Shown here one piece after another: positions 42,067 to 43,532 of a DNA stretch of 64,000 bases. Position numbers and translations under genes: made by a program. The number at the start of each line of letters is the position of its first letter. The first letter of the stretch is position 1. This stretch comes from Yuukianura sp. NJ FZ-2021 (Eukaryota). The stretch covers positions 9,176,001-9,240,000 of the forward strand of contig CM102289.1 of assembly GCA_046563655.1 (NCBI GenBank). Direction: 5' to 3'. The notes under the pieces were generated by a model. That model had not been told where the DNA came from. It saw only the letters and a list, made by a program, of their open reading frames with translations, and did not search any database.

Positions 42067-43532
42067 ATGAACGTTTTACTATGTTCCATTGTCGTAGTCG
42101 CCCTAGTAGGGTTTTACCATCCTAGTACCGTAGAAGCTGAAACTAAGGGGCCTAAGGTCACCGATAAGGTAAATCAACCCGTGTAGGTGTAACTATTCAT
42201 CTTCACCTCCATTTCCTAAATATTCTCCCGTTTCCATGGTAACTGTCACTAGCAAGTCAATTGGCAACATATTTGTTACACTTCAGTAGGAAGTGTAAAA
42301 ACTGTGTAGGCCAATTTCTACATTGTTGTACGGTTTGTGTTAACTAGCGAATTTGACCTTTTGACTTTGTGCGTTCGATAGTCGTCGTTTCAAAATTTGT
42401 TGCATAGTTTTTCGGGTTTGCGACAAAATGGGTTGCTGTTTTGGAAAACGGAAAAACGATGAGTTTGATGATTTTTATGGGGGCGGTGGAAGCGACGATT
42501 CCTTACACACTCCAGCCATTGTCACAGATAAGGTCACCCATCCCGCCAGTTACATTGGAATTCTCTAAAATGCATTGACATTAACGCCATTTTGCTTGTT
42601 TTCAGGTATGGTTTGACATTCATATTGGAGACGAGTTTGCTGGTAGGATCGAGATTGGAGTGTTTGGCAAAACTGTTCCAAAGACTGCTAAGGTATAGTC
42701 GTCATCTTACATTGCTACAGTTTCATATTGAATTCGGATTGATGTTTGATTCTGCTGTTGTTTATCTTTTTAGAACTTCATCGAATTAGCCCAGAAGCCA
42801 GCAGGTATGAACATAAAATTCTGAGTTTCTGAAACTATCAAGGTTTTCATGATTTCTGGTTTCGCTGAATGTTGGTTTTGCTTAATTTTTAGGTGAAGGT
42901 TACAAGGGAAGCAAATTCCATCGCGTGATTAAAGATTTCATGATCCAAGGAGGAGATTTCACGAAAGGAGATGGCACTGGCGGTAAGTCACCGGTAATCG
43001 TGATTTCTTTAATTAATAGTAAATTGTCAATCGTTTGATTGACGTTGCGCAGGTCGAAGCATCTATGGAGAGAGATTTGCCGATGAGAACTTCAAGCTCA
43101 AGCATTACGGCGCTGGTTGGCTGTCCATGGCAAATGCTGGAAAAGACACCAACGGTTCTCAGGTAAGCTGAATATTCATCAACTAATTAACAGCAGTTAA
43201 TCAATATTCTCGTTAAGTAAATAATTGATGTTACTCTCAAAATCTAGTTCTTCATCACCACCAAGAAAACTCCATGGTTGGACGGCCGGTAAGCTCAGAA
43301 ACGTTTTTGTACTAGTTTGTAAAACGTTTTCTAGTCGTCTTAAATCGTTTTTTTCTCTAGACATGTCGTTTTTGGAAAGATTCTGAAGGGTATGAGCGTC
43401 GTTCGGAAGATTGAGAGCACAAAGACGGACGGTCGTGACAAGCCAGAGCAAGACGTGACGATCTTCGACTGTGGAGCGGAGGAACTGGAGCCTTACGCTG
43501 TCGCCAAGGAAGACGCTCGAGATGAGCTGTAA
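42067..43532 (+). CDS. PPIB: peptidyl-prolyl cis-trans isomerase B (cyclophilin B), signal-peptide isoform ending in RDEL
   Basis: Exon 42067-42168 signal peptide plus [86 protein letters not shown]; ends DARDEL*. Confidence 0.95.
42428..42532 (+). CDS. PPIB: putative alternative first coding exon of cyclophilin B (MGCCFGKRK...PAIVTDK)
   Basis: CAAAATGG start context, 35 open codons ending VTDK like exon 1a, phase-0 AG|GT donor compatible with the exon starting at 42606. Confidence 0.7.

Follow-up and report, generated by a model that had tools for sequence, protein, structure and literature searches.

Cyclophilin B (PPIB) is treated as a foldase that acts in the endoplasmic reticulum (ER) and is also secreted. 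The closest described parallels to the arrangement reported here come from other enzymes: MSRA is described as a single gene whose two initiation sites or first exons yield a mitochondrial form and a myristoylated form located on late endosomes (PMC10469991), and the sperm hexokinase HK1S and NADH-cytochrome b5 reductase are reported to carry isoform-specific N-terminal acylation that decides membrane localization (PMC4736023, PMC2171821). The gene considered here encodes cyclophilin B in Yuukianura sp. NJ FZ-2021, probably a springtail, and lies in a stretch of 64,000 nucleotides (assembly GCA_046563655.1, contig CM102289.1, positions 9,176,001 to 9,240,000 of the forward strand), which we call the window and whose own numbering is used throughout. 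Its first intron contains a candidate for an alternative first coding exon; in place of the signal peptide, this exon would supply an N-terminus beginning Met-Gly-Cys-Cys, a sequence resembling the dual-acylation motifs of the Src-family and G-alpha type. We consider it likely that this exon is used at all, and we assign a probability of about 0.55 to the full reading, in which the exon serves as an alternative first exon and the resulting signal-less isoform is acylated.

The elements of the locus to which the argument refers are the following (a slash marks an exon boundary here and below):

41845-41857, + strand: first copy of the 13-mer CTTTTGACTTTGT, 84 nt 5' of ATG 41941
41941-42066, + strand: in-frame N-terminal extension of exon 1, 42 residues, MNVESLESNFSPAVLFPFIHCLTGGRGGCVSLRRHRLRIFII, preceding the hydrophobic segment
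42067-43532, + strand: cyclophilin B gene, seven exons, C-terminal RDEL
42067-42168, + strand: signal-peptide part of exon 1, ending ...KGPKVTDK, donor AAG/GTAAAT
42358-42370, + strand: second copy of CTTTTGACTTTGT, 58 nt 5' of ATG 42428
42428-42532, + strand: candidate alternative first coding exon MGCC...VTDK, 35 codons, ATG context AAAATGG, donor AAG/GTCACC
42533-42605, + strand: intron of 73 nt that the alternative exon would create, between the GTCACC donor and exon 2
42606-42692, + strand: exon 2, beginning VWFDIHIG..., preceded by TTTGCTTGTTTTCAG
42774-42804, + strand: exon 3, located by tblastn with P0123 and P0219
42893-42982, + strand: exon 4, located likewise
43053-43162, + strand: exon 5, located likewise
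43248-43288, + strand: exon 6, located likewise
43361-43532, + strand: exon 7, located likewise, ending in RDEL and the stop codon

The gene is of the cyclophilin B type. When exon 1 is taken from ATG 42067 and joined by script to exons 2-7, the frame runs uninterrupted for 210 codons to the RDEL stop (43518-43532), a C-terminus of the ER-retention type (K/R/H-D/E-E-L), and the modeled protein is 93% identical (195/210) to P0123, one of its nearest relatives. The tblastn matches of P0123 and P0219, the latter a further relative described below, span all exons, and the listed relatives carry the cyclophilin domain PF00160. A hydrophobic stretch, recognized by eye in exon 1, aligns with the signal sequences of relatives and is taken as the putative signal sequence. 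Intron 1 measures 437 nt and the remaining five introns 81, 88, 70, 85 and 72 nt; the six donors of these introns (GTAAAT, GTATAG, GTATGA, GTAAGT, GTAAGC and GTAAGC) follow the consensus GTA(A/T)(A/G)N.

The candidate exon lies within the long first intron. Its product would begin Met-Gly-Cys-Cys-Phe-Gly-Lys-Arg-Lys and continue with about 25 acidic, Gly/Ser-rich residues; its ATG stands in a strong context, with A at -3 and G at +4, and it stops at a GT in phase 0, like exon 1, after a VTDK of its own. Joined by script to exons 2-7, it opens a frame of 211 codons to the RDEL stop, so that the gene possesses two first coding exons with separate ATGs that join exon 2 in the same phase, both frames being open to the stop. 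On these points the original prediction was borne out: the coordinates and letters that it gave for both first exons and exon 2 proved exact on re-reading, and its statement that both end in VTDK in phase 0 and can be joined to 42606 holds for both complete frames. The would-be intron of 73 nt falls within the 70-88 nt range of the gene's five other introns, and the GC content of the candidate exon is 0.448, close to the 0.451 of exon 1 and above the 0.382 and 0.411 of the two intron parts that flank it. Only two GT sites are in phase within the MGCC frame, ATT/GTCACA at 42521 and AAG/GTCACC at 42533, of which the latter has the better exon end. Read instead as a cassette exon following exon 1, with an acceptor at 42381 or 42407, the MGCC frame yields a premature stop or a frame shift, which leaves a first coding exon as its only workable reading.

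A counterpart of this design is found in P0219, a cyclophilin B-type protein of 205 aa from an environmental contig of 1453 nt, which forms a single-member cluster. P0219 reads MGNCIRKTVNDRDEAVTDPPENGAADATAK followed by VWFDITIGDEPAGRIEIG...; it starts with MGNCIRKTVND, has ATAK/VWFDI at the junction and is without a hydrophobic segment. Over 176 residues it shares 93% identity with P0199, a signal-peptide form, and it diverges from P0199 and from all other relatives exactly at K/VWFDI, that is, at the position of the exon 1/exon 2 junction of the window gene. Its frame is unbroken across all six intron positions of the window gene, which indicates spliced RNA or, less likely, an intronless copy as its origin. 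A retained intron as the source of its N-terminus was rejected, since ENGAADATAK, which precedes the junction, is not what a pyrimidine tract would encode. Global alignment of the window exon with residues 1-30 of P0219 gives a score of 24, against -2.5 +/- 7.5 when the P0219 segment is permuted with its Met fixed; 3 of 2000 such shuffles reach 24, and none of 163 signal-peptide N-termini, aligned with the window exon as a control, attains it. The common positions are M1, G2, C4, K7, N10 and D11, followed in both by an acidic low-complexity stretch. As a transcript-derived protein, P0219 shows that a cyclophilin B form lacking the signal peptide and initiated by MG.C exists in a related lineage and is joined at the same exon boundary.

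The C-termini place the two proteins in different groups. Members of the window clade end in HEEL, RDEL or KDEL, and those of the clade comprising Folsomia, Orchesella, P0199 and P0219 end in ...EDA(E/V)E without an ER-retention motif. Given that P0219 belongs to the latter and the window gene to the former, the design appears in two clades; if the two N-termini are homologous, it would predate the split between them.

The explanation that competes best with exon use, which we nonetheless regard as unlikely, is that the frame is a by-product: a short local duplication would have placed a copy of the exon 1 donor region, with the 12 coding bases before it, in intron 1 and by chance at the end of an open frame, which is unspliced or spliced as noise and gives no functional protein. 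Positions 42521-42545 do repeat 42157-42181 at 20 of 25 bases, a segment made up of the final 12 coding bases and the first 13 of the intron, GT included. The original prediction held the recurrence of VTDK to be unlikely by chance; the repeat is real and its local alignment score of 25 exceeds the 17.6 +/- 2.4 of 300 shuffles, but the shuffle maximum is 26, and taken by itself the repeat is mildly significant, suggestive and not strong. Open frames as such are also readily obtained: of 20000 dinucleotide-preserving shuffles of intron 1, 8787 (44%) contained a frame of 25 codons or more that opened with ATG and reached an in-phase GT at a workable acceptor distance, so that the open frame alone is unremarkable. 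The start of the frame argues in the opposite direction. Such a frame began with Met-Gly in 778 of the 20000 shuffled introns, and those in which residue 3 or 4 was also Cys numbered only 86 (0.43% of all). The strong ATG context at 42428, the exon-like GC content, the gene-typical length of the intron that would result, and above all the recurrence in another clade of the same design at the same boundary, with an N-terminal similarity beyond that of shuffles, are likewise at odds with a by-product. An origin of intron 1 from a repeat or transposon was set aside, further copies being absent within the 64-kb window.

A number of observations weigh against our proposal that the exon is used and its product acylated, and several of them favor the by-product. 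The 25-nt repeat could be a short duplication that landed in an open frame by accident. The donor AAG/GTCACC, which had been called weak from the outset, is indeed so: it carries C at +3, +5 and +6, unlike the gene's six other donors, and it differs from every other donor observed. In the neighboring genes, where junctions are candidates picked by frame and consensus, the best in-frame candidate donors between pairs of open reading frames (ORFs) are GTAAGA, GTAATT, GTGAGT, GTAAGG and GTATGG, with candidate introns of 67-92 nt where the acceptor is clear (the first four of these). Enrichment of AAGGTCAC in the window (10 sites against 1.96 expected, a count reached in 0 of 100 shuffles) was considered as support for GTC donors and discarded, since none of its sites is shown to be a donor; by their coordinates some lie inside long open frames (Nup98-type at 33513, 33600 and 34195; SdhB-type at 40785; exon 1 at 42154).

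Further points on the same side come from database searches. The window's own protein is absent from the collection of 5.8 billion proteins that was searched; its nearest relatives, P0123, P0003, P0006, P0129 and P0128, derive from environmental transcript-length contigs, and the proteins of Orchesella cincta, O. dallaii and Folsomia candida fall into somewhat more distant clusters, a placement that by itself points to an animal which is probably a springtail or close to one. The MGCC exon, submitted as a 40-aa protein query, found 0 matches in the 5.8 billion proteins, and a 48-aa query of metagenome contigs matched only the bacterial sequences L001 and L002 through chance sharing of YGGGGSDD; the conservation of the exon in relatives, for which the original prediction had proposed a search, was therefore not recovered by exon queries. 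Of 237 related proteins (P0003-P0239), three begin with Met-Gly and have a Cys among the five residues that follow; of these, P0054 and P0076 continue into a normal signal peptide, leaving P0219 as the only one with an N-terminus of the kind proposed. For the closest relatives, signal-peptide forms alone were encountered; given that there are one to few contigs for each of these species, a minor isoform could easily be missing. Similarly, the best 150 cluster representatives for P0219 align from residue 7 or later and none combines MG.C, linker and domain, an outcome to be expected since isoforms collapse at 50% clustering. Arg6 of P0219 belongs with these objections and is taken up below with the motif.

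The standing of P0219 itself has also to be weighed. No signal-peptide form with a domain identical to that of P0219 was found among the listed relatives, and P0219 may hence derive from a separate paralog; it may be such a paralog or a retrogene rather than the product of an alternative exon. Even with such an origin, P0219 would be evidence that a protein of this kind exists, though not that one gene makes both. Two other proteins were examined as signal-less relatives and dismissed: the N-terminus of P0235 (MCCCNAD...) is the tail of the P0240 signal peptide, and P0013 (MTQKVWFDI) is most simply read as ...VTQKVWFDI, the sequence seen in P0197, called from a GTG start. The Timema models (P0222, starting MLSK...) are genome predictions.

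In the course of this comparison we observed that many marine, copepod-like cyclophilin B entries open with an evidently artificial 'MG', after which a 5' leader is translated before the true Met is reached. This applies to all the 'merc' entries that read through a 5' leader and to a few labeled 'jgi', and such entries constitute a trap in any search for Met-Gly N-termini. These starts are probably an artifact of cDNA libraries, and we suspect that the added 'MG' stems from a library oligonucleotide. A slight chance is left that the Met-Gly of P0219 is an artifact of the same sort, which would count against the proposal as well. None of the other springtail-like JGI sequences begins with an artificial 'MG', and the agreement of C4, K7, N10 and D11 in register with the genomic Met-Gly of the window argues that the start of P0219 is genuine.

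In light of the above, we propose the following scheme for the use of the exon. Exon 1, from 41941 or 42067 to 42168, would provide a signal sequence ahead of the cyclophilin domain and RDEL, giving a prolyl isomerase of the ER lumen. A transcript with 42428-42532 as its first coding exon would be spliced across the 73-nt intron to exon 2 and encode a signal-less protein of 211 residues, the first exon being chosen either by a transcription start inside intron 1 or by splicing from a shared upstream non-coding exon. After removal of Met, Gly2 would be N-myristoylated during translation; palmitoylation of Cys3 and Cys4 at a membrane would follow, and the basic KRK would contribute electrostatic affinity. 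The acidic Gly/Ser linker of about 25 residues would be flexible and carry the cyclophilin domain, so that an active cyclophilin would be tethered to the cytosolic face of membranes. As VTDK is encoded by the exon itself (in P0219 the equivalent is ATAK), the first beta-strand of the domain would be preserved in full; in the cytosol the RDEL tail would play no part. Both the use of the exon in Yuukianura sp. and the position of its transcript start are what we infer from the genomic sequence.

The acylation step depends on the motif. The PROSITE pattern for N-myristoylation is G-{EDRKHPFYW}-x(2)-[STAGCN]-{P}, and MGC or MGCC followed by basic residues is the dual-acylation motif of the Src-family and G-alpha type. 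Compared by eye with this pattern, G-C-C-F-G-K of the window appears to fit at all positions and G-N-C-I-R-K of P0219 to fail at the fifth, on account of Arg6. Cysteines adjoin Gly2 in both, Cys3 and Cys4 in the window exon and Cys4 in P0219. From this we infer myristoylation of Gly2, palmitoylation of Cys3/Cys4 and the resulting localization of the MGCC form. The misfit of Arg6, and the fact that beyond M1, G2, C4, K7, N10 and D11 the two N-termini differ, could alternatively mean that the exon is used and its MGCC not acylated, so that it would give either a cyclophilin B-like isoform that is soluble in the cytosol or nucleus or a regulatory transcript of low abundance; we consider this improbable, since the positions retained, Gly2, a neighboring Cys and a basic residue 7, are those that matter for dual acylation and the window motif matches the pattern throughout.

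The signal-peptide exon itself appears to be longer than previously taken. The frame is open from ATG 42067 back to ATG 41941, adding the 42 residues of MNVESLESNFSPAVLFPFIHCLTGGRGGCVSLRRHRLRIFII, which begin MNVESLES... and end RRHRLRIFII. This extension is kept in P0003, P0006, P0129 and P0128 with conservative substitutions and whole-codon gaps (the sequence of P0004 is open at its 5' end), and the extended product from ATG 41941 has 252 aa, equal to the length of P0003. In the Folsomia and Orchesella proteins the extension is shorter and rich in Arg, and it ends in the same RIFI(I/V) motif. For the signal-peptide exon, ATG 41941 is hence a more probable start than 42067. The claim that one gene yields a luminal and a membrane-anchored form is partly supported, by the gene anatomy, the MGCC-basic motif and the boundary shared with P0219, and has to be amended as regards the start of the luminal form. 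The 252-aa product probably has either an N-region that is long and charged or a signal anchor; the conserved extension could be what turns the hydrophobic stretch of exon 1 into such an anchor. ATG 41941 has T at -3 and ATG 42067 has A, from which it follows that both may be used; leaky scanning from the first to the second is possible.

Upstream of each of the two first coding exons lies one copy of the 13-mer CTTTTGACTTTGT, and these are its only two exact copies in the 64-kb window. With at most one mismatch it has 4 sites against 0.51 expected, a number that 0 of 100 shuffles reach. It may represent a shared promoter, leader or 5' untranslated region element of both first exons. A separate feature of intron 1, upstream of the MGCC exon, is an imperfect palindrome of 58 nt at 42259-42316 (74.6% over 59 aligned positions), which by eye consists of TTACACTTC / GAAGTGTAA around AGTAG with the flanks ATTGG and CCAAT.

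The remaining genes of the window were named by Pfam on long ORFs:

8217-10763: C2H2 zinc-finger protein
18174-18428: FERM-domain gene, FERM_M match
30218-30790, - strand: reprolysin-type metalloprotease
34005-35383: Nup98-96 autopeptidase
36101-39572: AMP-binding / ACSF4-like enzyme
40188-41105: succinate dehydrogenase iron-sulfur subunit, the immediate upstream neighbor of the cyclophilin gene
60749-61237, - strand: transglutaminase

If the proposal is correct, prolyl isomerase activity would be present at the inner face of the membrane, where proline switches regulate signaling proteins and channels, and a clean exchange of a signal peptide for an acylation motif would be added to the short list of MSRA, HK1S and b5 reductase. 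Together with the conserved N-terminal extension, the gene would then possess a three-way switch of N-terminal proteoforms. A first exon of 35 codons, and likewise the conserved extension, is overlooked by gene callers that retain just the first or the longest model and by ORF tracks that apply a length cut-off. In keeping with the original prediction that a form of this kind had not been described for PPIB, a search of the full-text literature found no myristoylated or signal-peptide-less cyclophilin B, nor, in about 8.4 million texts, any occurrence of the phrase 'myristoylated cyclophilin'; most subscription journals lie outside the coverage of that search, which is hence no proof of absence. 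We raise tentatively, as a possibility short of a firm expectation, that springtails hold an old and conserved second cyclophilin B product, tethered by myristate and palmitate and generated by a swap of first exons, which would be the first lipid-anchored cyclophilin.

Compared with the PPIB of other arthropods, the cyclophilin domain of the window gene is 80-87% identical to the named insect and springtail representatives, all with PF00160, and, as is usual for PPIB, the gene product has a putative hydrophobic signal sequence at the N-terminus and RDEL at the C-terminus. Two features set the gene apart, a second candidate first coding exon that encodes no signal sequence, and the 42 conserved residues preceding the signal sequence; to our knowledge neither belongs to the usual description of PPIB. 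In its Met-Gly-Cys-Cys and basic residues, as in the MGNCIRK of P0219, we see a likeness to the SH4-type starts of Src-family and G-alpha proteins. The difference is that the window motif sits on a prolyl isomerase by way of an acidic, Gly/Ser-rich linker, and homology ends at the motif. HK1S and b5 reductase are unrelated enzymes, and in neither is an acylation motif reported to take the place of an ER signal peptide. The likeness to MSRA is that of one gene with two N-termini, one of them bearing an organelle-targeting sequence. MSRA is a different enzyme; its two forms are experimentally demonstrated, and its switch lies between mitochondrion and endosome rather than, as proposed for the window gene, between the ER lumen and the cytosolic face of membranes. 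The window gene probably represents the same principle as MSRA, alternative N-termini that switch targeting, realized in a cyclophilin.

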